Positions 26,000 through 50,275 are shown, numbered from the stretch's first letter. The stretch is DNA of 64,000 nt from an uncultured Gammaproteobacteria bacterium (GCA_963848305.1 CAWKDC010000001.1:1512622-1576621); one strand, 5' to 3'. A program made the numbers and translations. The notes: generated by a model from the sequence alone, not told the origin.

Positions 26000-26011
26000 T
26001 GGGTTCCAGAT

Positions 26012-26038
26012 AAATGTATGCACTGCGTGCATACATTT
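26012..26038. terminator. Hairpin after alaS (terminator or REP remnant)
   Basis: AAATGTATGCAC-TGC-GTGCATACATTT perfect 12-bp stem; the flanks resemble the 4320-4355 element. Confidence 0.5.
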
Positions 26039-26091
26039 TCCGGGATGCGTTCAAATCATGCTCCGCATGATTTTCACTGACGGTGATATGA

Positions 26092-27348: not shown

Positions 27349-27462
27349 GTTATACTCTAAACATTAGATAATGATTGACGAATTCTGGGCACTCTGTCGT
27401 CCAAAAAAAGACAGGGGCCGGTAGAGGGAGAGTCAATAATATAAATTATTAAGGAGATTGAC

Positions 27463-27666
27463 ATGTTAATTCTGACCCGTCGCGTCGGCGAAACCCTTAT
27501 GGTGGGTGATGAGGTGAGCATCACTGTACTTGGGGTGAAAGGAAATCAAGTCCGTTTGGGTGTGGATGCCCCCAAAACGATCGCCGTTCACCGCGAGGAA
27601 ATCTACGCGCGGATCCAACAAGAGAAAAATGGCGGGCAGAGTACTGACGCTGAAGGCAATGAATAA
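27463..27666 (+). CDS. csrA: Carbon storage regulator CsrA
   Basis: [16 protein letters not shown]...[19 protein letters not shown]. Confidence 0.98.
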
Positions 27667-34182: not shown

Positions 34183-34500
34183 ATGTATCAAGTGATTTTG
34201 ATCATCCATGTGGCGATATCAGCGGCTCTGGTGATGTTTATCCTATTGCAGCAAGGCAAAGGCGGCGGCATGGGCGGATTAGGGGGCGGTGGCGCTTCCA
34301 CAACGTTATTTGGCAGTGGCGGGCCCGCAGACTTCATGAGCCACACAACCGCGATCCTAGCAACCGGTTTCTTTATCACCAGTTTGACCCTGAGCCTATT
34401 GGCTGTGAATCAAATCAAGGCCCAACGCGCACTCGACATGCCCGTCGTGCCCGAACAAGTTTCTGTAAATAGCGAAGTTCCAGTTGATACTGGATTGTAG
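34183..34500 (+). CDS. secG: Preprotein translocase subunit SecG
   Basis: ILLQQGKG...GASTTLFGS.G...T.ILA..FF; tpiA-secG-tRNA-Leu synteny. Confidence 0.95.
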   Translation: MYQVILIIHVAISAALVMFILLQQGKGGGMGGLGGGGASTTLFGSGGPADFMSHTTAILATGFFITSLTLSLLAVNQIKAQRALDMPVVPEQVSVNSEVPVDTGL

Positions 34501-34528: not shown

Positions 34529-34613
34529 GCCGATGTGGTGAAATTGGCAGACACGCCATCTTGAGGGGGTGGTAGCGCAAGCTGTGCCGGTTCGAGTCCG
34601 GCCATCGGCACCA
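34529..34613 (+). tRNA. tRNA-Leu (GAG)
   Basis: GCCGATG/CATCGGC acceptor stem, anticodon arm CCATC-TTGAGGG-GGTGG, long variable arm, GTTCGA T-loop, encoded CCA. Confidence 0.97.
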
Positions 34614-34636
34614 TTTTTTGTATGTGGGGTAGTCAT

Positions 34637-35965
34637 ATGTCTTTATTCAAAAAAATCATGATCGCTTTTCTCCTGTGTTCACTTCATGGCTTGGTCTACG
34701 CACAAGCGAACATCCCGATCGCATCTTGCAATGATTTGAAATCCATCAGCGCTAATATGAGCGGTTATTACTACCTCACACAGGATGTTTACTGTGGCAC
34801 GGTTCACCCGATTGATGGCACTTTCACGGGCACATTGGATGGGCAAGGGTTTACCATTTTCAATCTGAATATTGTGAATCAAGATGGTCGTAAAAGCGAA
34901 AACACCGGGATTTTTAGAACAATAGGGCAAAATGCACAAGTCACCAATATCCGCTTTTTCAATACCGTGTTGACTGCGCACCGAGATACGAATCGTGGGG
35001 TCATTGCGGGTGTGGCAACGGGAAATGTTAACGTCACGGACGTGGTTTTCGAGAAACTTCAAATATTGCACCACGATGTGGCTCCGGATAAGAAGAAGGA
35101 TTTAGGCGGGACAGGCAGCGTGGTGGGTCTTGCCACAGAAGGTACGATTGTGCTCAGACGCGTCATGGTGACAGGCCCAGCAGATGGCGTTTTGATCTCT
35201 CAAAACGCATTTGCAGGCGGGTTAGTGGGTATTGCTGAGGGCAATATTATCATTGAGCAGTCAAGTGTTTGGGCGTTGCAAGCAAAGGGAGGCAAAGAAT
35301 GTTACAACCCTGCGAATGAATGTGGGTATGGTGGTTTGGTCGGCTTAATCGGTAAATTCCAGCCCCACAATTATGATCATCCTGACAACCATGTACCCGC
35401 TCTTGAGAATGGCAACAGTGCGATCATTTCCCAATCTTCAGCATCAGGCGCTATTTTTTCAGACAAAAACATAGGTGGATTCGTTGGCATGATCAAAGCA
35501 GATCGAGGTGTTTTAATTGAAAACAGCTACTCTGATATTGCTATTTTATGCAGAAGATATTATCCAATTGGAAATGAATGTGAGGTTCCCAGTAAGTTTG
35601 CCGGTGGTGTGGTGGGGAAAGCTGTGGAAAGTGGTCATCAAAAAATGATCGCCCTGGGAAATGTGTATGTCATTGGGAGGAATGACAATGACATTAAGAA
35701 TGAACCCTACAGAGAATGGGACACGCATTCTGCTGCGATAGTAGGGATAGATGAGTCCGCTTCAACACGAATTATCAATTTGCCCAATACGCAAAGTTAC
35801 TACGATAGGGATAGCACAAAAATGTCAATATCAGGTGACATGGTATCGAGAGGGTTGACATCTAATCAAATGCAATCAGGCTATACTGCCGATTTTTCGA
35901 CCTGGGATCCTTCCGTTTGGACTTTTATCTATGGTTATTATCCTATTTTGAATGAAACACGGTAG
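34637..35965 (+). CDS. Secreted GLUG-motif repeat protein
   Basis: Signal peptide; YYLTQD...FTGTLDGQGFTIFNLNI cap; repeated (A/Y/I)GG(L/F/V)VG motifs; C-terminal W...YP.L. Confidence 0.78.
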   Translation: MSLFKKIMIAFLLCSLHGLVYAQANIPIASCNDLKSISANMSGYYYLTQDVYCGTVHPIDGTFTGTLDGQGFTIFNLNIVNQDGRKSENTGIFRTIGQNAQVTNIRFFNTVLTAHRDTNRGVIAGVATGNVNVTDVVFEKLQILHHDVAPDKKKDLGGTGSVVGLATEGTIVLRRVMVTGPADGVLISQNAFAGGLVGIAEGNIIIEQSSVWALQAKGGKECYNPANECGYGGLVGLIGKFQPHNYDHPDNHVPALENGNSAIISQSSASGAIFSDKNIGGFVGMIKADRGVLIENSYSDIAILCRRYYPIGNECEVPSKFAGGVVGKAVESGHQKMIALGNVYVIGRNDNDIKNEPYREWDTHSAAIVGIDESASTRIINLPNTQSYYDRDSTKMSISGDMVSRGLTSNQMQSGYTADFSTWDPSVWTFIYGYYPILNETR

Positions 35966-36052: not shown

Positions 36053-36463
36053 ATGGTGAATGTTTCATGGATTCAGAGAACATTGGGTGCTGAATCTTGC
36101 TACAACATGGGTCAGCGATATGAAACAGGAGCTATTGTTTCGCGTGATATGGCAACTGCTCTAGAATGGTATAGAGCGTCAGCGGCACTGGGCCATGTGG
36201 ATGCACAATTATGGCTTGCTGATCATTATAGAAAACAGAAAAACGTCGCTGAAGCAAGACAATATTATCGAAAAGCGATAGTAAAAAAACCGAAATTAGC
36301 ACACTATGGTCTTGCTTTATTGCTCGAAGATGAAGAAAAATATTCTGCTGCTTTAGAGGCTTTTGAACTCGCTGCATCGCTTGGATGTCATTTGTCTGAA
36401 AAAAAACTAATAGACTTTTCTCGTACAGGTGATCACAGGCCAAGCATTACTGATTTTGGGTGA
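36053..36463 (+). CDS. Sel1-repeat protein, N-terminal part
   Basis: MGQRYETG..V.RD...ALEWYRASAALGHVDAQLWLA; probably one gene with the next ORF. Confidence 0.8.
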   Translation: MVNVSWIQRTLGAESCYNMGQRYETGAIVSRDMATALEWYRASAALGHVDAQLWLADHYRKQKNVAEARQYYRKAIVKKPKLAHYGLALLLEDEEKYSAALEAFELAASLGCHLSEKKLIDFSRTGDHRPSITDFG

Positions 36464-39296
36464 GCTCGAAGAACATAAAGAGAACTGGGTCAAGGCAGAA
36501 CAACATTACACAGAAGCAGCAAATTTAATGTCTGCCAAAACGGTACCGCTAGCAAGTATTGAAGCATTAAAACGATTAGGTGATTTCTATATTAAGGGTC
36601 GTGCCACTATCCTCCAAAACAAATCCGTGGCAATCAAATACTATCAACAAGCAGCGATGTTAGGATCGACAGAAGCGTTAAATGCATTATTGGTGCTGGC
36701 AGAGACGGATGGAGAGGCAAACTATGCATTGGCAGAATGTTATTGTGAAGGGTTGTCTGCCGCTAGTGAAAATCTAAAAAAGGAGAAACTTGAAAAAATA
36801 CTTGAATACTTAAAGAAGTCTAATGCACAGAGATTTCTGCCAGCCAAAATGAAATTGGCTGAGATTACGAAAGATTATCTAAAGGACGAAGCACAAGCCT
36901 GTCACTATTATATTGAAGCTGCAGAACAAGGTGATAAGCAAGCACTAAGTCTATTGCCAGTGCTTCTTGATAAAATAACAAACATGGATTTATACCTTCG
37001 GTTTGGCCGTTTGAAGGAAAAACTGAAGGATGTTCAGGGCGCCATGGTTTATTATCATAAAGTCCATAAAATCTACGGCGGAAATCATGGTCAGCAGCAA
37101 TTGGCGCGGCTAGCCAATCAAGATGCGAAATATGCATTTGATATTGGAAAACTATTTGTACTGGACGACCCGATCAATGCGCTGAATTATTATATGATAT
37201 CTGCGCGTGCTAAAAATGCGGAAGCGTTAGCTGCCGCTGAATCTCTGTCGGAAAAGGGTTCTGCAGAGATCCAATATAAATTAGCAATGGAATATTTTTT
37301 GCCTGCTAAAAACATGCGAAAAGGCGTGAATTTTTTGTTGCATGCTTGGAATAAAGGGTATCAATTAGCGTTAACTGCGCTTAAATCAACAACATTTGAT
37401 GTCGCGATGTATCAGTATCTTGCCGAGCAATTTGAAAAAGGGGGTATTGTTAAGCAGGATGAATCATTGGCATTGTATTTTTATATTAAATGCGCCGAGT
37501 TACAACCTATACCAGGTGGATTTAAAGTCGGTGAGTATTATCTGAACGGACGTGGTACAGCTGTGAATGTATCACTTGGCTGCGAATATTATTTGAGCGC
37601 TGCAAAATTAAATTATCAGCCAGCCATTAATGGATTACAGCAAATGGCTGCAGAACAAAACCCAGAAGCACTCTATGCCTACGGGAAGTATCTATTTCAG
37701 CATTTGAAAAAGGACGATGGATTACTTTATTATGCCGCAGCTGCGCAGTGTCATCATACGCAAGCAAAAGAGTTTATTGGGAATAATGCTCTGTTCACGC
37801 AGGATCAACATATAATACTTGCAACAGCGTTTGATAAAGGGGCTGATAATCCCAAAGTGGCAGCAAATGCTGGGGCAGCGAAAAGATATTACCGAGCCGC
37901 CAGTCACAAAGGCTCCGCGATGGCAAGTTTTCGCCTCGGTGAATATGCTGAAAACGCAACAGAATCATCTGAAGATCCCGTCGATCACTTTGTCACAGCA
38001 TTACATCAAAAGCATCCGAAAGCAATAAGCCGATTAGAAATATATGGAAAGGCGAAAAATCAGAAGGCCTGTTTTGCGCTTTCAAAGGCATATGGGCAAA
38101 ACAATCGCATTGGTATTCAATGGTTAATTTGCGCGGCAGATTTAGGGCACAGTGATGCCTTAAATCAATTGAAAAGCATAAAAATTGATCACACAAGTGC
38201 TTTTATCGTTGCTGCGGCACTTGATACAGGCAAGACCCCCTTCTTTGATATCACACAAAATCTGTCGCTCGCATTTTGTTATTATAAAAGTGTGGTGGAG
38301 AATGATCCAAACTATCTAGATGCACTCTACCGAATAGTTCAATTTTATGAGCAAGGCCTAGGTGGTGTTGCTGTTGATCAAGTGTGTACAGCGAAAACGT
38401 ACGTGTCAATCGCGCTGAAATCATCAGGTGAGCAAGCCACAGCAGCCTTAGAAAAGGCATCAAAGATCATTGAGGGGATAAGCAATTGGGAATTGTGCTA
38501 TCAATTAGGTATTGCATACGAACATCATCAACAGACGAGCAAGGCCATACATGCATGTAAAAAAGCTGCTGATAATGGACATGCACTTGCCTTAAGTCGC
38601 CTCAACCGAATGGCGCAGCAAGATACCGAGTCAGCATATACCATCGGACTGTTGTATGAACAACAAGATATCAATCGCGCACTTGAATTTTATCAACCAG
38701 CATTGATGAGTAATCACGAGGCAACCGTTGAGAAAGTGAAAAAACTCGCGATTCATTTGCCTCAGGCCATGTACGTCATTGCACGTGATTATTATGTGCA
38801 GCATAAACAGATGCAAGCTGCAATTGAATCATTGATGCGAGCTATTGCACATCAACAACCTGACGCGCTGCTCTTTCTAAAAGGATTGAACTTAACAGCA
38901 ACACAATGCAATGCAATTGCCGCTACATATGAAAAAGGGGAAGGAATTCATGTGCAAAATTTTGCGTATGCCATAGCCTTTCGAGTGAAAGCGTTAAATA
39001 AGAGAAATCCAAATGAATTAATGCATCTCGCTGCTTTGTGTGAAAATAATCAGGAATCACCAAAAGAAAATAGGGCGCTTGCTTGGGAGTATTATTACAA
39101 GGCTGCAGAGTTAGGCTCAAATGATGCTTTTCTTGCATTGGAACGACTAGCGCGAACAGAATCAGAAGATAAAATACAAGCTTTAAATCAGCTGAAAGAT
39201 AAAAAAAATCGTACTCCTACTGTGACTTTCAGCTGGAATTCGACATTGCCGAAACGAGCCGCTTTGCCTGCTTCATATACTTCTAAAAGGAATTAG
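36429..39296 (+). CDS. Large Sel1/TPR-repeat protein
   Basis: Many Sel1 units (YYQQAAMLGSTEA, YIEAAEQGDKQA, CKKAADNGHALA, YYKAAELGSNDA). Confidence 0.88.
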   Translation: MITGQALLILGELEEHKENWVKAEQHYTEAANLMSAKTVPLASIEALKRLGDFYIKGRATILQNKSVAIKYYQQAAMLGSTEALNALLVLAETDGEANYALAECYCEGLSAASENLKKEKLEKILEYLKKSNAQRFLPAKMKLAEITKDYLKDEAQACHYYIEAAEQGDKQALSLLPVLLDKITNMDLYLRFGRLKEKLKDVQGAMVYYHKVHKIYGGNHGQQQLARLANQDAKYAFDIGKLFVLDDPINALNYYMISARAKNAEALAAAESLSEKGSAEIQYKLAMEYFLPAKNMRKGVNFLLHAWNKGYQLALTALKSTTFDVAMYQYLAEQFEKGGIVKQDESLALYFYIKCAELQPIPGGFKVGEYYLNGRGTAVNVSLGCEYYLSAAKLNYQPAINGLQQMAAEQNPEALYAYGKYLFQHLKKDDGLLYYAAAAQCHHTQAKEFIGNNALFTQDQHIILATAFDKGADNPKVAANAGAAKRYYRAASHKGSAMASFRLGEYAENATESSEDPVDHFVTALHQKHPKAISRLEIYGKAKNQKACFALSKAYGQNNRIGIQWLICAADLGHSDALNQLKSIKIDHTSAFIVAAALDTGKTPFFDITQNLSLAFCYYKSVVENDPNYLDALYRIVQFYEQGLGGVAVDQVCTAKTYVSIALKSSGEQATAALEKASKIIEGISNWELCYQLGIAYEHHQQTSKAIHACKKAADNGHALALSRLNRMAQQDTESAYTIGLLYEQQDINRALEFYQPALMSNHEATVEKVKKLAIHLPQAMYVIARDYYVQHKQMQAAIESLMRAIAHQQPDALLFLKGLNLTATQCNAIAATYEKGEGIHVQNFAYAIAFRVKALNKRNPNELMHLAALCENNQESPKENRALAWEYYYKAAELGSNDAFLALERLARTESEDKIQALNQLKDKKNRTPTVTFSWNSTLPKRAALPASYTSKRN

Positions 39297-39299
39297 GAA

Positions 39300-42200
39300 A
39301 TGAGAAATCATACAGATCTGTATTCAGTATTGAATGTTCCAAGCACTGCCACATTTGACGAGATAAAAAAGGCTTATCGTAAGCTCGCCATGAAACAGCA
39401 TACAGACAAAGGTGGCACTGATGATGCAATGGCAACGTTAAATAATGCATACGAAGTTTTAAGTGATGCTGCCCGCAAGAGCGCCTATGATGCGATGCAA
39501 GCGAGTGGTGCTGATGCCATTGATCGGATGTTTGAAGCGAAAGGCAAATGGGTGAAATTAGGCAGCACAGGTGAACGCTTTTCGGAAAGGTATAGGAAAC
39601 GTTTCATCGAGTTGAAGGCATCATACCAGAATGCGATACCAGTAGCGTTCGATATGAAAAATGTTGTTCCAGTGCATCAGAGCCAATTGTTTGATATCAG
39701 CACGCGAGAAGGAGTAATCAAAGAAGGTGGATTGCTTGAATTTCTCAAGAAACATGCGTTGTCCCACAAAGACGCGATGCTCCCTTCCGGCGTATGGCGT
39801 ACGCCTTTAACGCCACAGCATGCGATAGGAGTGCTGATTGATTTTGTCGAAGGTGATTATCGTGGGCTTCAACTGAAACAACTGTATGATTATATGATGG
39901 CGGAAGCGGAGAACGTTGATCAGAGAGAGAGGCAGCTATATCTCGCGTTAGCGAACATATTTATATTTGCCTACCGAGAATCATTGCCGAGCGAACTAGA
40001 GAAGTCAACGGCTCCATCAATGACGATGTCTGGACACAAGTCTTTGTGTGCTGTGACAAATTATATTAAAAAGACATCCAGCTTCAGTATGTCTTACTGT
40101 GCCTCATTGTTACAAAATGAATATTTTCGTGATTTTTATCAGTGGATACTCGTGAATGCTGTTTGGAGACAACCTGATCCAAAATTAATTCAAAACACAT
40201 TGGCTGAATACAATAATTACGATCATACACGTGAAGAGCTGCAAAAGTTGTTGGACAGGCAAGAATCTTTACCAGAAGATGCAGAAATGCGCAGCGGGTT
40301 TGAGCAATGGGTCACAACGTATAAATATCTCTATCTTTATGAAAAAAATGCCAAGGAACATCGAGAAAAACCAGTATACCTTAAATCAGCAGAGCATCAT
40401 ATCGAATGTGCATATGATATTATGGATTGGTTTCCAGTGTTAGGTGAACGCGTTCCAAGAGAAATTCTCGCAAACCTGTTGCTTCAAGCAGGTGCTCAAA
40501 TGCAAGTATCAGGCCAATTATCCACAAACCATCCGGAGAAAATGGCATGTGAAAAATTGAGCTATGAGTTTTATATGAATGCGCTTATGTTTGCAAATCG
40601 TTCATCCTTAGACGTTGAGTTATATGTCCTCCAACACATTATTTCTAATATCAGTGATTATCGCTTTCAAAATGAATCCGCTAAAAAAGCGCTGCCAGAA
40701 TTAGTAAAACTATATTCACATATATCAAATGTTTTTCCGCTCTATGAAGAACCGCAGGCACATATTCAATTATTTTCGACCAGTGATAATGGTTTGCAAG
40801 GTACGATGCGTCGCCTGCTGTATGTATTGGTTGATGTGGTTCGATTCAATCGATCACATGCGGCAGATGAGGCGAAACCCTTTGATCATAAATATGTTGA
40901 TGTCTTGTATTATGCATACGAAGCATGTTTGCGTAGATGGTATGAGTCCAATGAAGCGACTGAAAAAGATATTCGAACAACTCTTATGGAAGAATTGTTA
41001 GCTGACAGAGGCTGGAAGTTTTCTGATTTGAATAAGCGTTTGCAATCACCTTATATCATGATCGATCGAACACCAGATGGCTGGCTATCTCCGACACGCA
41101 CATTGGCATTGCCAACAAAAGAGAAACAAACAGCATTCGCTTCACTCGATGCCATTGAAATCGATGACAATACAGGCAACTTTCACTTCGTGATGCGCGA
41201 TATTACCGGCTGGCAAGATCCACAACAGCGCGTGGTCAGTTTTTCAGATATACAAGAAATATTCTCGCACAATGTCACAGGGGCACTGCTGAGTCTTGAT
41301 GAAGTCAATGAATACATGCGATTCCATCCATTTAATAAAATCAGAGTATCTCCAACATCCTTGTTCGAGACGGATTTTATCAATACGTTTTTGCTAACCG
41401 ATTATTTCCTAAAATTCATGACGGTGGGTCATGAGGTCAATGGCCAGTATCCCTACAACATGCGACCAGTCAGAGAGATGATCTCGCATTTTCCTACTCA
41501 TTTAAAATTGATTATTGAACAATTTCAAGACGCTCAGAAGGATGAATCTGCTCATCGTTTTTGGATCGAGGCATGTCCGGTGAATGCATTTTTGCCTGTT
41601 CAGGAGCGTGGCAATGACGAGACAACTCGAATCATGGTTCCTGAAATTCATATGATTGTTAAAAAACATCTTTTACGTCGAAGCGCTAGCGGTGCTTTAG
41701 TGGATGATCAAAATGAGCCTGATGAAGGCTGGCACTTGTATCGCTTTGATAAGCTACCAGGGCAGAATAAACTCTGTGAGTTAGCAACAGATAAATCCGT
41801 GATCGTTTTTACAAAAAAACTTACTGAGGTTTATTTTATTCCTAAAGGCGGGCAATCTGAAAAAATGCATTTACCAAATCATATAATGCATCTTTTTGTT
41901 AAATTATCAGCAATGACTATTGATGATAGTGGTGCAATTTCAAGGACTGACGAAAATTCAAGTTATCTATATTATGTTGTCAAAGTATTGTGCGCTGAGT
42001 ATAAAAAACCAACCCTTTTTTCACCAGAATATGTGTTCGCACAGGAGTTTACACTCCACTATGATGAATTTGCAAACTGTTTGCCTGAGTTTGCTCGCCT
42101 TCGCGAGCTGGCTCGTTTGACAGTGTACGTTCAATTATTAAATCGCGTGAAATCATCAAACGAGCTTCAAAAGACAAAGCTGGAATCTATCCTTAATGAT

Positions 42201-43787
42201 GTCGAACATTGGAAAAAACGTGAAGCCGTAGTCAAAAAAGCCATTGCAGATATTAAGCAGCAATACGATAATCTTTATAACCAAACGTTTCAAGACATGC
42301 AGACTAATATTTCTGAGAAGTTTAGTCACTTTAATCGAGACTTTTCTCGGACAGCCTTAGAACGAAAATATCTTGCTATCCTTAATGGTATTAAACAGGA
42401 CATTGATCCGCTTGATTTTAATGAAAGATCCCGGCAAGTCGTCGATGCGGTTGACAAGATGTACAATGAAAATCGAAGCCGTATTATCAATCAGCATGGC
42501 ATGGCTCAATGGAATTACAATGCGACTAACATTCGAAACCAGTGCGATGCAGAAAAAGGCAAAATCGCACGCGAGTTAACAAGAATGAAACGCGAATCTG
42601 TTCATGCAAGTCTGTTGAGTCAATATGATTCGATCTTGGCTTTGCCGAGAAGCACGATCTCGACATATGTCACTGAATTTATGAATGGAAACCATCAGAA
42701 TCTGCTGCGATCTCTAGTGAATGAAAGTTACAATAAATCATTGACAGCATTGGTCAGCTCTTTCGGTTCCTTTGATATCGGGCACTCCACTGTTGAAAAT
42801 GCATTAACTTCCCCATCCGCTAGAAATAGCATTACTAAAATCATTGTTGATAAAAATACAGCAGCGCTGCGAACACAATGTGATAGCGAAATTGCCCGTG
42901 CAAACAATATTATCTCTGAAGAGAAAGCTGAGATACGAGCAGCGATCGCTAAATTTCAGCGCGTGATCAATAAATTGGGTGAGCTAGGGATCGGTCGCAA
43001 AGACGCTTTGGATCAGGCCGACATTTCTCCCGAGAAATGCACTTGGGTGCCTGCCAGTGTTGATCGACAAGAAAACCGCACTCGTCTTGTATATGGTGGA
43101 GTTCATGTGCAGCCCAGTATTCATGTGGTGACAAGTATGAACTCGCAAACACAATCAGCGGTAAATCAGTGTTATTCCCCGTCGAATCATTTTCGTTATT
43201 CGTCACAAGATTTACCTCGTGCGACTCAGAATGGATGCAGTAATAATTTCCAACAACGCATGGCCTCTCAGCCGTCTGCTCCTCCGCCACCCCCATCTTC
43301 CGGTGGCGGATATGGTGGTGGTTCATCGAGTGGTGGAGGGCGACGTCCGCCTTCACCGCCGCCACCAGGGAATGGCTACTCGAATAGTATGAGTGATGCG
43401 TTGCGTCATAAAGTTGTCCTCAGTTTCCAAGAGGCGGGTATGATGCGACAGAGCGAGAAATTGACGCAGCAGGCTATAAACGGAAGCGAAAGAATTATTG
43501 CTGGAAGAGATCTCAATAATCCCCATCTTGTCAATACATTAACTGCAGGTGGGAAAAATATCAATGATTGGGGTAAGTATACTACACCTTCAGTCACACT
43601 TTCGACTGGTCAAAGTGTTCAGATACATTACTATAAGCATGAACCTACCGGTAAAATTTCAAATATTGAGTATAAAGTTAAAGGTGTGGTAGATTATGCA
43701 GGCAAACCCAGTGCTGCTGAACGCACGGGCGCTGATCCTTACCGAGGCACTGGAAAGGCAAAATATGCATCCGAACTTTTTAAATAG
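39300..43787 (+). CDS. J-domain + DUF1598-like core + Pro/Gly linker + putative C-terminal toxin domain (candidate polymorphic toxin)
   Basis: DLYSVL...EIKKAYRKLAMKQHTDKGG...NNAYEVLSD J-domain; TDYFLK / RFWI / FAQEFT..YDEF..PEFARLREL / YGGV core; PPPPPSSGGG linker; tip with DWGK...QIHYY...TG...EYKVK; small immunity-like gene 11 nt downstream. Confidence 0.75.
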   Translation: MRNHTDLYSVLNVPSTATFDEIKKAYRKLAMKQHTDKGGTDDAMATLNNAYEVLSDAARKSAYDAMQASGADAIDRMFEAKGKWVKLGSTGERFSERYRKRFIELKASYQNAIPVAFDMKNVVPVHQSQLFDISTREGVIKEGGLLEFLKKHALSHKDAMLPSGVWRTPLTPQHAIGVLIDFVEGDYRGLQLKQLYDYMMAEAENVDQRERQLYLALANIFIFAYRESLPSELEKSTAPSMTMSGHKSLCAVTNYIKKTSSFSMSYCASLLQNEYFRDFYQWILVNAVWRQPDPKLIQNTLAEYNNYDHTREELQKLLDRQESLPEDAEMRSGFEQWVTTYKYLYLYEKNAKEHREKPVYLKSAEHHIECAYDIMDWFPVLGERVPREILANLLLQAGAQMQVSGQLSTNHPEKMACEKLSYEFYMNALMFANRSSLDVELYVLQHIISNISDYRFQNESAKKALPELVKLYSHISNVFPLYEEPQAHIQLFSTSDNGLQGTMRRLLYVLVDVVRFNRSHAADEAKPFDHKYVDVLYYAYEACLRRWYESNEATEKDIRTTLMEELLADRGWKFSDLNKRLQSPYIMIDRTPDGWLSPTRTLALPTKEKQTAFASLDAIEIDDNTGNFHFVMRDITGWQDPQQRVVSFSDIQEIFSHNVTGALLSLDEVNEYMRFHPFNKIRVSPTSLFETDFINTFLLTDYFLKFMTVGHEVNGQYPYNMRPVREMISHFPTHLKLIIEQFQDAQKDESAHRFWIEACPVNAFLPVQERGNDETTRIMVPEIHMIVKKHLLRRSASGALVDDQNEPDEGWHLYRFDKLPGQNKLCELATDKSVIVFTKKLTEVYFIPKGGQSEKMHLPNHIMHLFVKLSAMTIDDSGAISRTDENSSYLYYVVKVLCAEYKKPTLFSPEYVFAQEFTLHYDEFANCLPEFARLRELARLTVYVQLLNRVKSSNELQKTKLESILNDVEHWKKREAVVKKAIADIKQQYDNLYNQTFQDMQTNISEKFSHFNRDFSRTALERKYLAILNGIKQDIDPLDFNERSRQVVDAVDKMYNENRSRIINQHGMAQWNYNATNIRNQCDAEKGKIARELTRMKRESVHASLLSQYDSILALPRSTISTYVTEFMNGNHQNLLRSLVNESYNKSLTALVSSFGSFDIGHSTVENALTSPSARNSITKIIVDKNTAALRTQCDSEIARANNIISEEKAEIRAAIAKFQRVINKLGELGIGRKDALDQADISPEKCTWVPASVDRQENRTRLVYGGVHVQPSIHVVTSMNSQTQSAVNQCYSPSNHFRYSSQDLPRATQNGCSNNFQQRMASQPSAPPPPPSSGGGYGGGSSSGGGRRPPSPPPPGNGYSNSMSDALRHKVVLSFQEAGMMRQSEKLTQQAINGSERIIAGRDLNNPHLVNTLTAGGKNINDWGKYTTPSVTLSTGQSVQIHYYKHEPTGKISNIEYKVKGVVDYAGKPSAAERTGADPYRGTGKAKYASELFK

Positions 43788-43798
43788 ATAGGAACATT

Positions 43799-44167
43799 AT
43801 GAAACTGATATGCAATCTAAAGGATAGTACATGGGTAAACTATGGTGATGCATATTATCCATTGGCAATTAGTTTTAGTTTGAAAAGTGGTATTGAAGTG
43901 TATATACAATCTGAGGATAATAATACCCCAATTTGGAAAAAAATAACTGGTTTTGAAGTCATTGATCAAATCATTCCCAGCTCATGGGTTAGGAAAGTAG
44001 ATGCAGATCCCGCATATGGGATAATCACATTTCTCCCGGCAAAATGGGTCTATCGTGGTTTTTTTGAAGAATTATATGATGATGTCCCCTCTGCTGTAGC
44101 ATTATTCAATGAAGAAGCGATAAAAATATATAAGGAATTGAAAGCGCCAGGGTATGAACAGGATTAA
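43799..44167 (+). CDS. Putative cognate immunity protein
   Basis: 122 aa, directly after the toxin-like tip; FEVIDQ.IPS.W and P.KW...GFFE..D motifs; paralog 1.1 kb downstream. Confidence 0.7.
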   Translation: MKLICNLKDSTWVNYGDAYYPLAISFSLKSGIEVYIQSEDNNTPIWKKITGFEVIDQIIPSSWVRKVDADPAYGIITFLPAKWVYRGFFEELYDDVPSAVALFNEEAIKIYKELKAPGYEQD

Positions 44168-44209
44168 TTTCGTTATTGGAATTGCAAAAGTAATTAGATT
44201 GATATGAAT

Positions 44210-44230
44210 GTAGGGGCGCATATTTGTGCC
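44210..44230 (+). repeat. GTAG REP
   Basis: GTAGGGGCGCATATTTGTGCC at the end of cassette 1; counterpart at 45310-45330. Confidence 0.7.
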
Positions 44231-44313
44231 TGTCCGCGCCATGGTGCGGCAATAAATCGATTTCGGATCGCGTTGTGGATCAAAAGAGAGAAAGTCGACA
44301 ATGAGCACGGAAA

Positions 44314-44673
44314 ATGAAAAGAGAAGATTTAATTCAAATACTTGAAGGCGATATAGATCATATCGATCATGTGGATATGTATGATGAGAACATGTGTTCC
44401 CCGGAAGTGGAAGTGCATCCAAAACATGTAAAAAGGATGTTGCTCGATTTCATCAGTGATAAACTTAGCGCGCAACAATTACAAAAATGGGCAGAGTTCA
44501 TATCATATCGTTGTGACTATTCGTCGATCAATTTCATGGAACTCGAAGATGAAGATTATTATGAAGTCATGTGGGATGTGATCAATTGCTTGTCAACCCC
44601 CGAACTTGACGGTGAAATCACCAAAGAAAGTGTGAAGGGATACTTGTTGGAACTGCAGAAGTATACGGAGTAA
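44314..44673 (+). CDS. Acidic hypothetical protein, probable orphan immunity protein
   Basis: 119 aa, D/E-rich, unrelated to its neighbours, located between two immunity paralogs. Confidence 0.6.
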   Translation: MKREDLIQILEGDIDHIDHVDMYDENMCSPEVEVHPKHVKRMLLDFISDKLSAQQLQKWAEFISYRCDYSSINFMELEDEDYYEVMWDVINCLSTPELDGEITKESVKGYLLELQKYTE

Positions 44674-44761
44674 GGCCTCAGCCTCGTCAGAGGCAGCAGA
44701 TGTGGAGCCCCGCATGTAGCGCGCCTGATAGGGCGTGCAAATGTGGGGTTCCCATGAGGCC
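44674..44761. repeat. GC-rich nested hairpin between cassettes
   Basis: GGCCTCA...TGAGGCC outer stem and GGAGCCCCGCAT...ATGTGGGGTTCC inner stem. Confidence 0.55.
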
Positions 44762-44776
44762 GCTGTAGGCGGCGGA

Positions 44777-44887
44777 ATGGGAGGTGTGGTAGATTATGCA
44801 GGCAAACCCAGTGCTGCTGAACGCACGGGCGCTGATCCTTACCGGGGTACTGGAAAAGCGAAATATGCATCCGAACTTTTTAAATAG
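44777..44887 (+). pseudogene. Orphan copy of the toxin C-terminal tail (36-aa micro-ORF)
   Basis: ATG GGA followed by GVVDYAGKPSAAERTGADPYRGTGKAKYASELFK*, identical in protein to the last 34 aa of 39300-43787. Confidence 0.8.
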
Positions 44888-44898
44888 ATAGGTACGAT

Positions 44899-45267
44899 AT
44901 GAAGCTCATTTGTAAAATAAAGGACAATCTATGGGTTAATTATGAAGAGGAATATTATCCTCTTGCAATTAGCTTTTCGTTAAAAAGAGGGATCGATATA
45001 TGCATACAAGTTGGCGAAGATGGAATGCCGGGTTGGAGTAGTCTAGTTGGTTTTGAAGTTATCGATCAGACCATTCCTAGCTGTTGGGTGAGAGATGTAC
45101 ACGAAGATCCAACGTATGGAATCATCACGTATCTGCCTGCGAAATGGGCCTACCATGGATTTTTTGAGGACTTAAGCAATGATATACCTGCTGCCGTAGC
45201 ATTATTCAATGAAGAAGCGATAAAAATATATAAGGAATTGAAAGCGCCAGGGTATGAACAGGATTAG
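44899..45267 (+). CDS. Orphan immunity paralog
   Basis: Same length as 43799-44167; about 86/122 identical by hand count; last 24 aa identical. Confidence 0.72.
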   Translation: MKLICKIKDNLWVNYEEEYYPLAISFSLKRGIDICIQVGEDGMPGWSSLVGFEVIDQTIPSCWVRDVHEDPTYGIITYLPAKWAYHGFFEDLSNDIPAAVALFNEEAIKIYKELKAPGYEQD

Positions 45268-45365
45268 TTTCGTTATTGGAATTGCAAAAGTAATTAGATT
45301 GATATGAATGTAGGGGTGCATATTTGCGCCTGTCTGCGCCAGAGAACAAATTTCTTAGCTAACCA

Positions 45366-45410: not shown

Positions 45411-45995
45411 TTATTGTTTCTTGTAGCAATAACCTATCTTTTTACCATTGCCGGACCAGCACCCAGCATTCAAATCCATCAGAGCGCATAGACCAGCTGC
45501 GTTGATGGTGTATTTTGAGTTAGTAATGCCGTTGTTGCACTGGAAAGTTTGATCATAACTAAAGTTGTTGCCATCATCAGAAGCATTACATTCTGCTATA
45601 CCCCCACCATTAGGGCAATGGACGATTTCTGACGTAGTCGCCGTAACATTGGGATCACTGCTTTTGTCACAAAGAACATTCTGTCCTCCATGTTTTATGC
45701 AGTCTAAATAATTGTCGCTGTTGACGCCACAGATTGTGCTTTGACCCCCATTGGGGTTAGATAATTGTACGGCATAATTACATGTTGAATCACCCTGAGG
45801 GACCTCGGCGCATTGAGAGAGTGGCAGTTTGGCCGAGCAGTTAGGTGCGGTATCGCTGAGGGCAGGGAATGTGATGAGAGACAGCAAGAGAGGGGTTGCA
45901 CAGCGAAGTGTCACTGATAAAATTGATGTATTGATGAAACTTTTCCTTAAGATGGATTGATACGAATAGTTTAGATGTTTAAGCATGAAAGTCAA
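45411..45995 (-). CDS. Cysteine-rich, probably secreted small protein (start uncertain)
   Basis: Hydrophobic PLLLSLITFPALS segment followed by ~147 aa with 12 Cys. Confidence 0.65.
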   Translation of the reverse strand: MTFMLKHLNYSYQSILRKSFINTSILSVTLRCATPLLLSLITFPALSDTAPNCSAKLPLSQCAEVPQGDSTCNYAVQLSNPNGGQSTICGVNSDNYLDCIKHGGQNVLCDKSSDPNVTATTSEIVHCPNGGGIAECNASDDGNNFSYDQTFQCNNGITNSKYTINAAGLCALMDLNAGCWSGNGKKIGYCYKKQ

Positions 45996-46176: not shown

Positions 46177-47244
46177 ATGAAAGCAAACAAACATCTTATT
46201 TGGATCATTCTCACGCTGCTGTTGGGCTGCTCCAAATCCGATCAAGTATCAACAGCCCCGCGCTTGGTCAAAACCGTTGTGGTGGGAGAGGCTGGGGTGT
46301 CGGCGGAACGTTCCTTTCCGGGGCGTGTGATTGCAGGTCAACGGGCGGACATGTCTTTTCAAGTCTCTGGAACATTGAGTGAATTGCCGGTTAAAGAAGG
46401 ACAGCGCGTCACGCAGGGGCAACTTCTTGCAAAGCTCAATTCACGTGATTTTGAAAATCGTTATAATGCAGCGAAATCCACGCGTGACATCACCGAAATC
46501 AATTATGAACGTGGAAAAAAATTAGTCGTGAACGGCACGGTTGCACAAGTCACTTTTGATGATCTGCGCAATAAATTTGAAGTCGCAAAATCAGAAGAAG
46601 CCATTGCACAAAAAGCACTGGAAGACACACAAATGTTGGCACCTTTCACCGGCATGATTGCGCGCGTCTATGTTGATAATTTTCAAGAAGTGCAAGCAAA
46701 AGAAAAAATCCTCACCGTGCAAGATGTTCAAGATGTGGATATCCTGATCGATGTCCCCGAGCGAGATATTATTAATCGACAGAATATGAATAATAACCGT
46801 GTTGAGGATCAAACATTGCCCAATGGTTATGTGGTGTTTGATGCCATTCCTGGTCAACAGTTTCAGGTCACTGTAAAGGAATACGCAACTGAAGCAGACC
46901 CGACCACACAAACCTATCGCGTGCGACTGAGCATGAAGGCTCCTGAAAACATCAATATTTTACCCGGCATGACAGCGACATTGAAAATGAAACAGCCTGC
47001 ACAAATGATCACTGAGACATCTTTGCCAGCAAATGCTGTCGCTGTCGACCCTCAAGGACATTTTTATGTGTGGGTTGTGAAAGAAGACATGACGGTGACC
47101 AAAGTGCCTGTTCAAGTCGGCGATATGGTCGGGAATGATATTCGCATCACGCAAGGCATTTCGCAAGGTCAACGTGTGGTTGTTGCGGGCGTGCCGTATT
47201 TAACAGAAGGCATGAAGATCCGTTTATTCACCAACCAATATTAG
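46177..47244 (+). CDS. RND efflux periplasmic adaptor (MFP), lipoprotein
   Basis: LLGC lipobox, FQVSGTL.ELPVKEGQ.V..GQLLAKL, APFTG, LPGMTA. Confidence 0.93.
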   Translation: MKANKHLIWIILTLLLGCSKSDQVSTAPRLVKTVVVGEAGVSAERSFPGRVIAGQRADMSFQVSGTLSELPVKEGQRVTQGQLLAKLNSRDFENRYNAAKSTRDITEINYERGKKLVVNGTVAQVTFDDLRNKFEVAKSEEAIAQKALEDTQMLAPFTGMIARVYVDNFQEVQAKEKILTVQDVQDVDILIDVPERDIINRQNMNNNRVEDQTLPNGYVVFDAIPGQQFQVTVKEYATEADPTTQTYRVRLSMKAPENINILPGMTATLKMKQPAQMITETSLPANAVAVDPQGHFYVWVVKEDMTVTKVPVQVGDMVGNDIRITQGISQGQRVVVAGVPYLTEGMKIRLFTNQY

Positions 47245-47251
47245 GATTGAT

Positions 47252-50200
47252 ATGAACCTCGCCACCAAAGCCATTCAATATAAATTATTCACGCTTGTCT
47301 TAACGCTATTGGTGATTATTGGCGGCGGATTTGCCTATGAAAAATTGGGACGATTGGAAGATCCAGAATTCACTGTGAAATCCGCATTAGTCGTCACACA
47401 ATATCCGGGTGCCAGCGCGACTGAGGTCGAAAAAGAAGTGACTGAAGTGCTTGAAACGGAAATTCAAGAATTAGGACAGATCGATTATTTGGAATCACAA
47501 ACCAGTACAGGATTGTCCAGTATCACTGTCACTATTTTAGATAAATATGATAAACACACGTTACCACAAGTGTGGGATGAATTGCGCAGAAAAGTGAATG
47601 ATGCGCAAACCAAATTACCTCCAGGCGTGGGGCGTTCTGCAGTGTATGATGATTATGGCGATGTGTATGGCGTATTATTGGCCGTGACAGGTTCTGAATA
47701 TTCAGCAGAAGAATTAGAAGATTTCGCAGATTTTTTACGGCGCGAATTACTGACGGTGCGAGATGTGGCTAAAATTAATATGTGGGGTGTGCAACAGCGT
47801 CAGGTCTTTGTCGATATTGCACAATCAAAAATGGCTCAACTGGGAATCAGTCTAGAGTCCATTTATGCCACACTGGAAAAACAAAATTTGGTGCAAGGGG
47901 CAGGGCATGTCAATGTGGACAACGAATTCATTCGGATCAGCCCAACAGGCGAAATCAGTTCGGTTGAGGCCATTGGCAATTTACTGATAGGTAGCCATGA
48001 TCAACAGCTGATTTATTTGAAAGACATCGCTACCATCAGCCGCGGTTTAATCACTCCTCCCTCGGAGCATTTGCGATATAAAGGTAAAAATGGGATTGCC
48101 TTGGGCGTATCGACGGTCTCAGGTGGCAACGTCGTATTGATGGGCGAAGCCATCCAGCATAAATTAAAATCATTGGAAGCGCAAACACCACTCGGCATGC
48201 AAATTGATCCGATATACTTTCAAGCCGATGGTGTGAAAAAAGCCGTAAATGGATTTGTGGTCAATTTAATTGAAGCCCTTGCGATTGTGATCATCGTGTT
48301 GATGATATTCATGGGCAAGCGTAGTGGGTTGTTGATTGGCGGCGTTTTATTAATCACTGTGGCTGCGACGGTTTGCATGATGCAGTTTTACGCGATTGAT
48401 TTACAGCGCATTTCATTGGGTGCACTGATCATTGCACTTGGGATGCTTGTGGATAATGCGATTGTGGTGGTCGAAGGCATGCAGGTCAAAATGCAACAAG
48501 GTATGCCAGCTGTTAAAGCTGCGGAAGAAACGGTGGGGCAAACCATGTGGCCCTTATTGGGTGCGACTGCTATTGCCGTGTTGGCATTTGCGGCGATTGG
48601 TCTATCACAAGATTCCACTGGAGAATATTTGAGATCACTTTATCAGGTGATGTTGATTTCACTCGGGTTAAGCTGGTTGATTGCAATCACTGTCACGCCT
48701 GTATTAGGCGTTATGTTTTTAAAAGTTACCAATCAATCGCAAGACCCGTATGCAAATCCCATTTTTAAACGATACAAAGCATTTCTATCAACCTGTATTG
48801 ATCATCCCATGCCCACATTATCGATAGTCTTAGGATTACTATTATGTTCCGTGGTCGCTTTCAAGCAATTAGAACAGAGCTTTTTCCCCGATTCTACCAC
48901 CCCTCAATTATTGATTCATTATTGGTTGCCGCAAGGGACAGATATTCGAAAAACAAGCAGCGATCAAAAAGACATCGAAGCGTTCATCGCAAAACAACCA
49001 GGTGTGAAATCGGTCAGTACATTTGTGGGGGGCGGTGCTCCGCGATACACGTTGGTCTACAGTCCTGAAAAAGTGAACAATGCCTACGGATTATTCATGA
49101 TTGATGTAGATGATTATCGCATCATCAATGATCTCACAAAAACCATCATGGATTATATTCACCAACATTTTATCGATGCCAATCCTCGTGCTGAGAAAAT
49201 TAAACTGGGACCAAGTGGTGGTTATCCATTAGAGTTTCGTATTCAAGGAACAGATGCAAATGTGTTGCGGGCGTTGGGAGATCAAGTCAAAAATATTTTG
49301 ATTGAGGATGGTGGTGCGAAAGGGATCCGTGATAATTGGCGTGAACGTGTTAAATTAATTCGTCCAGAGATTAAAACAATTCAAGCAGAACGTGCGGGTT
49401 TAACCCGCTCTGATATTGCGCGGGCAATTGAAACTGTATTTATTGGGACGCAAGTGGGTATTTACCGAGAAGGCGATAAATTATTACCGATTGTTTCCAG
49501 GGGTATTGCATCTGAACGCGAGCTTGTCGACAATTTATATAGTATTCAAGTCTGGAGTGATTTGGCGCAAAAAAGTGTGCCTCTCAGTCAATTGGTGTCC
49601 GAGTTCACGACAACGTACGACGACTCAATTGTACAACGGCGTAACAAATTAAGAACCTTAACCGTGCAAGCAGAGCCTGTCGCGGGCAATGTCAGTGTTT
49701 TATTTGAAAGGGTGCGTGATAAGATAGAAGCGATTCCTTTACCAGTCGGATATGCGTTTGAATGGGGCGGTGAATATGAAGATTCAACCAAGGCACAAAA
49801 AAGTTTAGCGGCGAAAATTCCGCCCACGTTAATCTTGATGATCTTGATCACGATTGGATTATTCAATGCATTAAAACAACCCATGATCATTTGGATCACT
49901 GTTCCATTGTCTATCATTGGTGTGGCATTTGGATTATTATTATTCGGCGAACCCTTTGGCTTTATGGCTTTATTAGGATTTTTGAGTTTATCGGGTATGT
50001 TGATTAAAAATGCGATAGTCCTATTGGATGAAATGGATCTAGAAGTGAAATCGGGCAAAGGATTGGACGATGCCATTTTAGCTGCTTCTGTTTCCCGTAT
50101 GCGCCCGGTTCTCATGGCAGCTGTGACCACGGTATTGGGCATGATTCCCCTTTTAACCGACGTCTTCTTCAAAGGCATGGCCGTGACGATCATGGCGGGG

Positions 50201-50275
50201 CTAACGTTTGCCACGGCTTTAACCTTGATTGTCGTGCCTGTTCTATACCGATTGGCATTTGCGCGATTGAAATGA
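47252..50275 (+). CDS. RND efflux permease (AcrB/AcrD/AcrF family)
   Basis: EDPEF, YPGASA.EVE, LGMLVDNAIVVVE, IKNAIVLLD, RMRPVLM. Confidence 0.95.
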   Translation: MNLATKAIQYKLFTLVLTLLVIIGGGFAYEKLGRLEDPEFTVKSALVVTQYPGASATEVEKEVTEVLETEIQELGQIDYLESQTSTGLSSITVTILDKYDKHTLPQVWDELRRKVNDAQTKLPPGVGRSAVYDDYGDVYGVLLAVTGSEYSAEELEDFADFLRRELLTVRDVAKINMWGVQQRQVFVDIAQSKMAQLGISLESIYATLEKQNLVQGAGHVNVDNEFIRISPTGEISSVEAIGNLLIGSHDQQLIYLKDIATISRGLITPPSEHLRYKGKNGIALGVSTVSGGNVVLMGEAIQHKLKSLEAQTPLGMQIDPIYFQADGVKKAVNGFVVNLIEALAIVIIVLMIFMGKRSGLLIGGVLLITVAATVCMMQFYAIDLQRISLGALIIALGMLVDNAIVVVEGMQVKMQQGMPAVKAAEETVGQTMWPLLGATAIAVLAFAAIGLSQDSTGEYLRSLYQVMLISLGLSWLIAITVTPVLGVMFLKVTNQSQDPYANPIFKRYKAFLSTCIDHPMPTLSIVLGLLLCSVVAFKQLEQSFFPDSTTPQLLIHYWLPQGTDIRKTSSDQKDIEAFIAKQPGVKSVSTFVGGGAPRYTLVYSPEKVNNAYGLFMIDVDDYRIINDLTKTIMDYIHQHFIDANPRAEKIKLGPSGGYPLEFRIQGTDANVLRALGDQVKNILIEDGGAKGIRDNWRERVKLIRPEIKTIQAERAGLTRSDIARAIETVFIGTQVGIYREGDKLLPIVSRGIASERELVDNLYSIQVWSDLAQKSVPLSQLVSEFTTTYDDSIVQRRNKLRTLTVQAEPVAGNVSVLFERVRDKIEAIPLPVGYAFEWGGEYEDSTKAQKSLAAKIPPTLILMILITIGLFNALKQPMIIWITVPLSIIGVAFGLLLFGEPFGFMALLGFLSLSGMLIKNAIVLLDEMDLEVKSGKGLDDAILAASVSRMRPVLMAAVTTVLGMIPLLTDVFFKGMAVTIMAGLTFATALTLIVVPVLYRLAFARLK

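Follow-up and report, generated by a model that had tools for sequence, protein, structure and literature searches.

Polymorphic toxins are classed by their N-terminal export module, and the locus described here raises the question of what kind of toxin it encodes, and by which route such a toxin would leave the cell, when no known module of this sort is present. The stretch analysed, hereafter the window, comprises 64 kb (C1:1512622-1576621) of the genome of an uncultured Gammaproteobacteria bacterium (G000; 1.89 Mb in 4 contigs, completeness 92%, guanine-plus-cytosine (GC) content 0.467). It carries a gene for a 1495-amino-acid (aa) protein headed by an Hsp70 co-chaperone J-domain, preceded by a Sel1-repeat gene and followed by an array of small genes. 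An earlier reading of the sequence alone (below, the sequence-only reading) had proposed that this unit is a candidate new polymorphic toxin system with an undescribed delivery route, and the present analysis speaks for a new polymorphic toxin system on three counts, the exchangeable C-terminal tips, the small genes matched to them and the J-domain head. We hold it to be very likely that the locus is a toxin-immunity module with exchangeable tips, and probable, with clearly less confidence, that this polymorphic toxin-immunity system represents an architectural class not described before.

Coordinates given without a contig are positions within the window; G000 is the window's own genome, other G and L labels denote other genomes and loci, and X labels denote metagenome runs. 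The features of the locus are as follows.

36053-36463, plus strand: Sel1-repeat protein, N-terminal piece, 136 aa (Pfam Sel1, 39.7 bits; cut-off 30.7)
36429-39296, plus strand: Sel1-repeat protein, main piece, 955 aa (Pfam Sel1, 61 bits; cut-off 30.7)
39300-43787, plus strand: J-domain-headed probable polymorphic toxin, whole gene, 1495 aa (ORF, Pfam, homologs)
39315-39491, plus strand: J-domain, residues 6-64, with an HTD motif (Pfam DnaJ, 57.4 bits; cut-off 27.8)
39510-43037, plus strand: conserved body, residues ~71-1246 (AlphaFold2, family alignment)
43038-43103, plus strand: junction motif C-x-W-V-P-A-S ... V-Y-G-G-V, residues 1247-1268 (found in 21/22 family proteins)
43104-43385, plus strand: variable linker, a Pro/Gly/Ser low-complexity stretch, residues ~1269-1362 (translation)
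43386-43694, plus strand: C-terminal putative toxin domain, residues 1363-1465, unnamed family (HMMER homologs)
43683-43787, plus strand: tail extension, last 34 codons and stop, 5' arm of the repeated module (repeat comparison)
43799-44167, plus strand: putative cognate immunity protein, 122 aa (gene begins 11 nt past the toxin stop; complex model)
44314-44673, plus strand: small acidic protein, 119 aa, family without a name (28 D+E against 11 K+R)
44782-44887, plus strand: orphan repeat of the 34 terminal codons of the toxin gene, within a 50-aa ORF at 44735-44887 (identical residues)
44899-45267, plus strand: diverged paralog of the immunity protein, 122 aa, sharing 70% identity with it (sequence comparison)
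~43682-44258: repeat copy 1, comprising toxin tail, immunity gene and ~90 nt downstream (DNA repeat)
~44782-45358: repeat copy 2, spaced 1100 nt downstream of copy 1 (DNA repeat)

The layout proposed by the sequence-only reading was confirmed, with corrections of detail. In the table of open reading frames (ORFs), the 1495-aa gene starts at 39300 directly after the Sel1 stop at 39296, leaving a gap of 3 nucleotides (nt), and the translations agree that the 122-aa gene begins 11 nt past the stop of the large gene. The claimed small acidic gene corresponds to the 119-aa ORF, the last 34 residues of the 50-aa ORF are identical to those of the large protein, and the diverged paralog of the 122-aa gene is present as a second ORF. 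The unit had been thought to end at 45341; the repeat that closes it is real, but it runs 17 nt further. Similarly, Pfam found Sel1 repeats upstream in both ORFs, whereas the single Sel1 gene that had been described is split into two overlapping ORFs in the assembly. The N-terminus is a J-domain as claimed, Pfam DnaJ being the sole Pfam domain of the 1495-aa protein, and Pfam detected none of the RHS, PAAR, VgrG, FHA or LXG modules in it.

The carrier protein and its exchangeable tips

Relatives of the 1495-aa protein were found at 35 loci of a species-representative genome collection, mostly in Legionellales. The loci with a species name come from Legionella shakespearei, L. worsleiensis and L. 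fairfieldensis, and L. pneumophila is absent among the 35; the others lie in metagenome-assembled genomes (MAGs) labelled Tatlockia, Legionellaceae, Legionellales, Coxiellaceae, 'Francisellaceae' and Gammaproteobacteria, and also Holosporaceae 'Namur'. Some of the MAG labels, such as Bacteroidia or an archaeon, seem wrong. Indeed, one 2550-nt contig labelled Bacteroidia (L028) holds a carrier fragment covering residues 209-1036 with 85% identity, and most likely is a mis-binned contig from a close relative of the window's organism. Full homologs occur in G011 and G006 of the window's own family, which also includes a distant homolog of 2149 aa in G007 and a remnant in G004. The carrier homolog search in the unpublished genome G050, on which nothing here depends, returned ordinary DnaJ matches only. 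Contigs at least 99% identical to the locus were also present in soil and wetland metagenomes (17/17 in run X2, 16/16 in X3 and 10/10 in X4), and the window's organism is a relative of Legionella from these habitats.

All members have in common a J-domain, a body of ~1250 aa with invariant blocks that include HRFWIE, LLTDY.LKF and EFT.HYDEF, and the junction CxWVPAS...VYGGV. The J-domain assignment is clear, since the matches of the 1495-aa protein in a PDB sequence search are J-domains only, with E values down to 1e-16. Among the 25 members with a visible N-terminus, the characteristic tripeptide is HPD in 21, HSD in two and HTD in two, one of which is the window protein. The body was modelled by AlphaFold2 over residues 66-1265 from 27 sequences, with a predicted local distance difference test (pLDDT) of 81.5 and a predicted template modelling score (pTM) of 0.70. 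In model numbering (protein residue = model residue + 65), helical repeats at ~100-520 are followed by an alpha/beta part at ~520-840 and a helical hairpin at ~845-1165; the latter two correspond in the protein to a central alpha/beta domain at ~585-905 and a long coiled-coil hairpin at ~910-1230. A beta-hairpin is predicted at the junction. Neither Pfam nor NCBIfam has a match for the body, NCBIfam adding nothing beyond DnaJ, Foldseek gave no match at E<=0.001, and the ESM Atlas returned no usable match. A wide structural search with the 1200-residue body (VIA) retrieved generic helical repeats and hairpins, the best of them (Z 9.3) being a designed protein, and this search barely probed the alpha/beta domain.

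The junction closes the conserved part of the carrier, the tips diverging after it, and was recognised in 21 of the 22 family proteins compared; in the remaining one, L057, the pattern matched inside the tip instead. Low-complexity linkers rich in S, G and P follow the junction in homologs too. Beyond VYGGV, the tails of the 22 proteins fall into 10 BLAST clusters, some of which were merged only through a shared post-junction segment, which makes 10 a lower bound for the tip types. The sequence-only reading had expected that homologs of the N-terminal part would carry different C-terminal tips, and this is what we observed. The most direct case is the pair L049 and L052, which share 79% identity over residues 1-1261 and are unrelated thereafter, the similarity ending ~40 residues past the junction. 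Pfam scans of ten tails identified AHH (65.8 bits), Ntox8 (69.2 bits) and Ntox17 (122.9 bits); the other seven, the window type included, matched no Pfam model. Four members depart from this plan: L033 and L042 end without a tip, and the shorter L039 and L050 do not extend to the coiled coil. The 2149-aa relative in G007 (L026 8071-14520, C8) has a far longer tail with hydrophobic helices and an 'LYRG...EIFPEGF' stretch, which matched nothing in Pfam and which we take to be reminiscent of ADP-ribosyltransferases.

The tip of the window protein belongs to a widespread family, with 334 cluster representatives at E<=1e-3 and 120 at E<=1e-10 in an HMMER search of 1.84 billion representatives. In 141 of 149 proteins (the best 150 representatives, of which 149 were re-found locally), the tip ends no more than 40 residues from the C-terminus. 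Among these best 150, 25 proteins exceed 1000 aa and four possess a body of the J-domain family. Eight carriers of the tip were scanned for other domains, which revealed PT-VENN in one, DUF637 in two, PT-TG in one, DnaJ in one and nothing in three. Since it is C-terminal on several classes of carrier, the window tip is a putative common-pool toxin domain that has no Pfam model. The last ~31-34 residues of the protein, which form a tail beyond this domain, are absent in most tip homologs, and a subset of the homologs has a similar tail of the form K-x-P-x-x-E-P...P-Y-D-P. Such a tail in unrelated tip homologs led us to drop the idea that it could be a window-specific export signal.

Counting from protein residue 1363, positions N45, L52, W62, K64 and H81 of the tip are invariant, and T53, G56, T67, G75, Y83, D95 and K97 nearly so. 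The AlphaFold2 model of the tip, built from 45 sequences, has a pLDDT of 84.3 overall and above 90 over residues 1-100, and shows the order alpha-alpha-beta-alpha-beta-beta-beta, with the conserved Lys, His and Tyr residues on the sheet. When it was compared with 48,161 chains (VIA-align), the top match was RelE (1wmi_C, Z 4.4, root-mean-square deviation (rmsd) 3.6, 72 residues aligned); CdiA-CT of Klebsiella pneumoniae 342 (6cp9_A, Z 4.0, rmsd 4.3, 78 aligned) and BrnT (3u97_A, Z 3.6, rmsd 3.8, 57 aligned) were also retrieved, all three lying under the Z of 8 below which matches count as noise for this tool. Foldseek found no match for the tip at E<=0.001, no solved chain in the PDB matches it by sequence, and a word-based search against longer proteins returned no match either. 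These small RNase toxins share with the tip model the order of secondary-structure elements and the Lys, His and Tyr on the sheet, but there is no match by sequence or by Foldseek behind this resemblance. The 'RelE-like RNase' is thus a lead from modelling and not a finding, because every Z score is below the noise guide, and we regard the chances that the tip has RNase activity as evenly balanced. If it does, the tip would most likely be a metal-independent RNase with a RelE/BECR-like fold that uses Lys64, His81 and Lys97, a suggestion that we make tentatively.

Small downstream genes and the repeated module

In nearly every complete locus, a small co-directional gene lies no more than ~35 nt from the toxin stop or overlaps it. 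The family of this downstream gene tracks the tip type, in line with the expectation that each tip would be followed by a different small gene. Ten downstream genes were scanned with Pfam: Imm11 follows two AHH tips, DUF2750 follows Ntox8 and DUF4304 follows the tip of L052, and the other six have no Pfam name. In the tables of Zhang et al. 2012 (PMC3482391), Imm11 is the partner of Tox-AHH and Imm16 ('also known as DUF2750') that of Ntox8. The window-type tip is followed by a gene of the 122-aa family in all four places where it was seen, namely the window, G004, L051 and L046. The relatives in G004 are 53% identical to the 122-aa protein and, for a second paralog, 30%; the L051 protein is related to it with an hhalign probability of 97.3% (E 1.7e-11), and the L046 protein is 53% identical to that of L051. 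A third tip type ('RIRYY...VHPK') is accompanied in L036, L049 and L040 by genes of 82-84 aa in one, three and two tandem copies, respectively. The arrays of L049 (12123-13049, three copies) and L040 (7568-8122, two copies) are homogeneous poly-immunity arrays of an unnamed family. In G011, the small gene that follows the carrier (L023 7044-7340) matches DUF6966 with 45.1 bits, and this may be the immunity family for the unnamed 'LYRAG...GEYFTF' tip of that protein.

The window immunity genes themselves have no match in Pfam or NCBIfam, a word-based search with the 122-aa protein retrieved only the two window paralogs, and a PDB sequence search with the immunity profile gave one row at chance level. 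A complex model of the tip and its immunity protein had been suggested as a check by the sequence-only reading. Modelled with the 122-aa protein, the 133-aa tip construct (residues 1363-1495) scored 0.90 (median of three runs), against 0.05 for the best of three controls. The mark passed here is one that 58 of 80 solved complexes attained, as did 2 of 110 mismatched pairs, rates that are rough since our own alignments were used. Contacts agree by at least 76% between runs, and the pLDDT of the partner is at least 90. The modelled interface spans tip residues 35-45, 64-69, 81 and 97-111, and so involves positions 64, 66, 81 and 97 of the conserved surface together with the start of the tail (99-111). 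The complex model supports binding of the tip by the immunity protein, and the pass is probably not a memory effect, because no like complex has been solved as judged by sequence. According to this model, the 122-aa protein would bind over the conserved surface of the tip and so protect the producer.

The two repeat copies are unevenly conserved. Identity is 94% in the 5' arm (43682-43798, 117 nt), 69% in the core (43799-44080) and 87% in the 3' part (44081-44258). Over codons 1-94 of the immunity paralogs, synonymous divergence (dS) is 1.80 and nonsynonymous divergence (dN) 0.26, a ratio of ~0.14, while dS is 0.20 over codons 95-122. Judging from these substitution rates, the core of the immunity genes is under purifying selection. 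The pattern indicates that the core of the second 122-aa gene diverged anciently and that the cassette recombined between near-identical flanks; a recent duplication in place does not fit, because a diverged core lies between near-identical arms, as in a mosaic. The second 122-aa gene would then be a spare immunity cassette that homologous recombination introduced or maintained, with the toxin's last 34 codons as one arm and, as the other, the immunity gene's 3' end together with the DNA that follows it.

The sequence-only reading had likened the repeated 34 codons to the 'orphan tail' of Rhs and CdiA loci. This comparison was borne out only in part. A spare immunity gene with recombination arms is present, but the repeated codons are the tail beyond the toxin domain, copy 2 has no toxin domain upstream of them, and no alternative tip is present. 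The orphan tail would be a recombination handle beside a spare immunity gene, and exchange at the repeat would swap or add immunity, not toxin. Metagenome contigs cover the locus except for 44559-44875 and show no joints, which makes them uninformative on rearrangement at the repeat.

A REP-like motif (GTAGGRGCGCA...) occurs in 45 copies in G000, and the copies at 34497, 44210 and 45310 fall in or near the locus, one just 5' of a tRNA-Leu gene and one just downstream of each immunity gene. Within each repeat copy, the motif could serve as a recombination arm or as a terminator. The remnant in G004 (L025 8871-10504, C10), located directly after a pilQ-like gene, consists of a 252-aa fusion of N- and C-terminal Sel1 parts, a 60-aa piece of a window-type tip (69% identical) and two intact immunity paralogs of 127 and 121 aa. 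Immunity kept after loss of the toxin fits a role in protection against the toxins of neighbours.

The 119-aa acidic protein encoded between the repeat copies has one homolog, 48% identical, in the word-based search. It has no match in Pfam or PADLOC, the ESM Atlas yielded unnamed clusters only, and the gene may be an orphan immunity gene.

The Sel1 partner and the surroundings of the locus

The two Sel1 pieces lie in different frames, with the break near 36428-36440. The Sel1 homolog of G011 is one protein of 1090 aa that aligns to both window ORFs, and the 955-aa piece is 32% identical over 908 aa to this gene upstream of the G011 carrier. A contig of run X2 carries two additional letters behind 36439, matches the window in all other letters over 312 nt and maintains a single reading frame. 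Because this contig reads through, the split may be a strain variant or an assembly error. A 10-nt insertion had also been considered as the cause of the break and was ruled out, the X2 contig differing by two letters.

In the window, the carrier is preceded by an adjacent, co-directional Sel1 gene. Of 19 other loci with a full carrier gene, 11 have the same arrangement (nine recognised by BLAST and two by Pfam above the cut-off). Of the remaining eight, one has a divergent Sel1 gene, two have sub-threshold Sel1 matches and five have none; among these five, the upstream gene is of LuxR-TPR type in one and pdxA in another. The gene upstream of the L051 carrier combines Sel1 and ankyrin repeats. 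The idea that homologs keep the Sel1 neighbour is therefore borne out for the 11 loci but not for the five, and the Sel1 partner is frequent, not obligatory. Its product is probably an accessory protein or adaptor.

Upstream, a tRNA-Leu gene (34529-34613) precedes the locus and GC drops from ~0.49 to ~0.40. An integrated island was considered for this low-GC stretch next to tRNA-Leu and dropped, given that neither an integrase nor a repeat of the tRNA end was found around it. The flanking ORFs at 34622-35965 and 45411-45995 (minus strand) are unique. The first (447 aa) has a signal-peptide-like start and the second (194 aa) is Cys-rich with a hydrophobic start; both lack a Pfam match and a relative in any fetched locus. 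Further downstream, at 46177-50275 and outside the locus, the window encodes an ordinary RND efflux pair with an HlyD-type adaptor and an AcrB-type pump. On the scale of the contig, the first ~135 kb of C1 (1-~140000) have a GC of ~0.55-0.60 and the remainder ~0.45, and C1 probably is a chimera of two organisms. The part with a GC of 0.45 contains the window as well as the type IVB and type VI clusters considered below.

Export, target and relation to known systems

The sequence-only reading had advised a search for secretion genes elsewhere in the genome, and two clusters were found. A type IVB cluster at C1:0.91-0.925 Mb comprises DotI/IcmL, a TrbI-like gene, a T2SSE-type ATPase and a PF16932 gene, and a type VI cluster at C1:1.351-1.366 Mb comprises tssB, tssC, hcp, tssF, tssG, tssK, tssM and a VgrG-like gene. 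Of 11 carrier genomes, counting the G004 remnant and the distant G007 member, 10 have DotI/IcmL; the only carrier without it, Holosporaceae, has two VirB4-type genes instead. TssC, for its part, is present in two of the 11. In G006, DotI/IcmL (C1:12908-13441) lies ~10 kb from the carrier gene (23608-27558) on the same contig. The tssC gene of G000 (C1:1361039-1362533; L067 10040-11534) consists of two ORFs in different frames, the break between them lacking a homopolymer, and represents either a pseudogene or an assembly error.

Since it is the sole specialised system common to nearly all carriers, a type IVB (Dot/Icm-like) machine is the likeliest exporter, a proposal that we nevertheless put forward tentatively and with less than even confidence. 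The carrier, laid out as J-domain, ~1250-aa body, junction, floppy Pro/Gly/Ser linker and exchangeable ~100-aa toxin domain, would be exported through such a machine, most likely against rival bacteria in the same protist host or biofilm. Bacteria seem to us a slightly better guess as the target than the host. The J-domain probably recruits the Hsp70 of the producer or of the target; help with unfolding or translocation, as put forward by the sequence-only reading, would be a possible role for it. A bolder version is that Dot/Icm also fires antibacterial toxins with exchangeable tips at rivals, with the J-domain hijacking Hsp70 for delivery, either in loading, through the DnaK of the producer, or in refolding, through that of the victim. 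We consider this rather unlikely. If true, polymorphic toxins would have a further, new mode of trafficking, and Dot/Icm, known as an injector for host manipulation, would have a new function.

Several observations weigh against the proposed system and its route. The Pfam and NCBIfam scans of the 1495-aa protein revealed no export signal of any known kind. Since, to our knowledge, every Legionellales genome has Dot/Icm, the co-occurrence with DotI in 10 of 11 genomes is weak evidence. Type IV signals are usually C-terminal, and type IVB export fits poorly because the C-terminus is the variable part of this family, unless an internal signal or an adaptor is used. An intact HPD is needed to stimulate the ATPase of Hsp70; because the window copy has HTD in its place, its head may be weakened and Hsp70 activation impaired, as far as the motif can tell, and HSD or HTD also occurs in 3 of the 24 other members. 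The Sel1 partner is frameshifted in the assembly and missing in 5 of the 19 other loci. Unlike classical Rhs and CdiA orphans, the orphan module brings no alternative toxin. Finally, the fold matches of the tip are within noise (best Z 4.4, and none at E<=0.001 in Foldseek).

These observations have to be balanced against three other explanations. The carriers could be host-directed effectors that Dot/Icm injects into the protist, where the J-domain would act on host Hsc70 and the tips as nucleases or RNases, immunity protecting the producer before export. This would agree with the presence of DotI in 10 of 11 carriers and with the lifestyle of the named carriers (three Legionella species, Tatlockia, Coxiellaceae and Holosporaceae), all intracellular or protist-associated. 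J-domains, Sel1 and ankyrin repeats are moreover typical eukaryote-like effector modules, the last two being combined in L051, and Zhang et al. 2012 (PMC3482391) argue that polymorphic-toxin domains are redeployed by endosymbionts against hosts. For self-protection alone, however, the spare or tandem immunity genes of the window, G004, L049 (three copies) and L040 (two copies) would be needless, the tips come from the interbacterial pool (AHH/Imm11, Ntox8/Imm16), and immunity that outlasts the toxin in G004 fits defence against the toxins of neighbours. Effectors aimed at the host thus appear unlikely to us.

An intracellular conflict system, of the abortive infection or addiction kind, would dispense with export altogether: a cytoplasmic J-domain sensor would carry an exchangeable effector restrained by the small protein. 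Many defence systems indeed join a conserved sensor to variable effectors, no export signal was found, and the low-GC stretch adjoins tRNA-Leu. Yet PADLOC matched none of the six locus proteins, the stretch is bounded by neither an integrase nor an attachment repeat, the tips and their partners belong to established families of secreted toxins and immunity proteins, and the window tip is also found on CdiA-like and PT-TG carriers, all of which makes a purely intracellular role quite improbable. The weakest candidate is that the toxin is cargo of the type VI system of G000, which has tssB, tssC, hcp, tssF, tssG, tssK, tssM and a VgrG-like gene and belongs to a standard polymorphic-toxin route (Table 1 of Zhang et al. 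2012, PMC3482391). The cluster is located ~190 kb upstream, far from the locus, its tssC is split in two frames, TssC occurs in only two of 11 carriers, and the toxin has no PAAR, VgrG, Rhs, MIX or FIX module; we give this route hardly any credence. An exported toxin directed at rival bacteria is our preferred reading.

If this reading is correct, the family matters in several ways. It spans many Legionellales and one Holosporaceae genome, all bacteria living inside protists, and suggests that exchangeable toxins serve intracellular bacteria in conflicts with one another, a subject that has received little attention. The family is also a concrete candidate for a new route of export and for the use of Hsp70 co-chaperone domains in toxin delivery. 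The ~1250-aa carrier body, the junction motif, the ~100-aa toxin domain and the immunity family are newly defined here, and none of them has a Pfam family or a solved structure. Literature searches returned no J-domain-headed polymorphic toxin and nothing on interbacterial Dot/Icm toxin-immunity pairs in Legionella, the words 'J-domain' and 'DnaJ' are absent from the text of the L. pneumophila effector atlas (PMC11696984), and most of the main text of Zhang et al. 2012 (PMC3482391) has neither 'DnaJ' nor 'J domain'. The J-domain-headed design is apparently new to the literature.

Compared with the classical polymorphic toxins CdiA/CdiI, Rhs, MafB and LXG, as treated in the main text and tables of Zhang et al. 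2012 (PMC3482391), the family has the same conserved carrier with an abrupt switch to unrelated C-terminal toxins, and the same cognate immunity gene directly downstream with extra immunity genes. Tips (AHH, Ntox8, Ntox17) and immunities (Imm11, DUF2750/Imm16) come from the same pool, and the window tip also occurs on PT-VENN, DUF637 and PT-TG carriers. In contrast, the carrier has no signal peptide, TPS, RHS/YD, PAAR, VgrG, LXG or MafB-N, its head is a J-domain and its body is without a Pfam family, no alternative tip accompanies the orphan, and the junction is its own CxWVPAS...VYGGV instead of VENN, PT-TG or PT-HINT. Because only DnaJ was found at the N-terminus, the family is new in lacking a known export module. 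The part of the trafficking table of the same article that was compared covers Sec/type II and type V, the toxin tables add type VI, type VII, PVC and TcdB/TcaC, and neither a type IV route nor a J-domain head was noticed in these passages.

A type IV route is known from the X-Tfe/X-Tfi pairs of Xanthomonas and Stenotrophomonas (PMC6536674), which resemble the window family in pairing toxins with cognate immunity proteins and in using type IV export. X-Tfe effectors, the only ones that the corresponding part of that article presents for bacteria-killing type IV systems, include an AHH nuclease with a cytoplasmic immunity protein. They differ in using a type IVA machine and in having reverse polarity, with an N-terminal toxin and a conserved C-terminal recognition domain (PMC6536674); no domain of this type was seen in the window family. 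The Dot/Icm effectors of Legionellales are similar in other respects: they occur in the same lineages and in genomes with a type IVB cluster, are large and multidomain, and involve Sel1/ankyrin partners and chaperone-related domains. What sets the window family apart from them is the combination of exchangeable tips with dedicated immunity genes.

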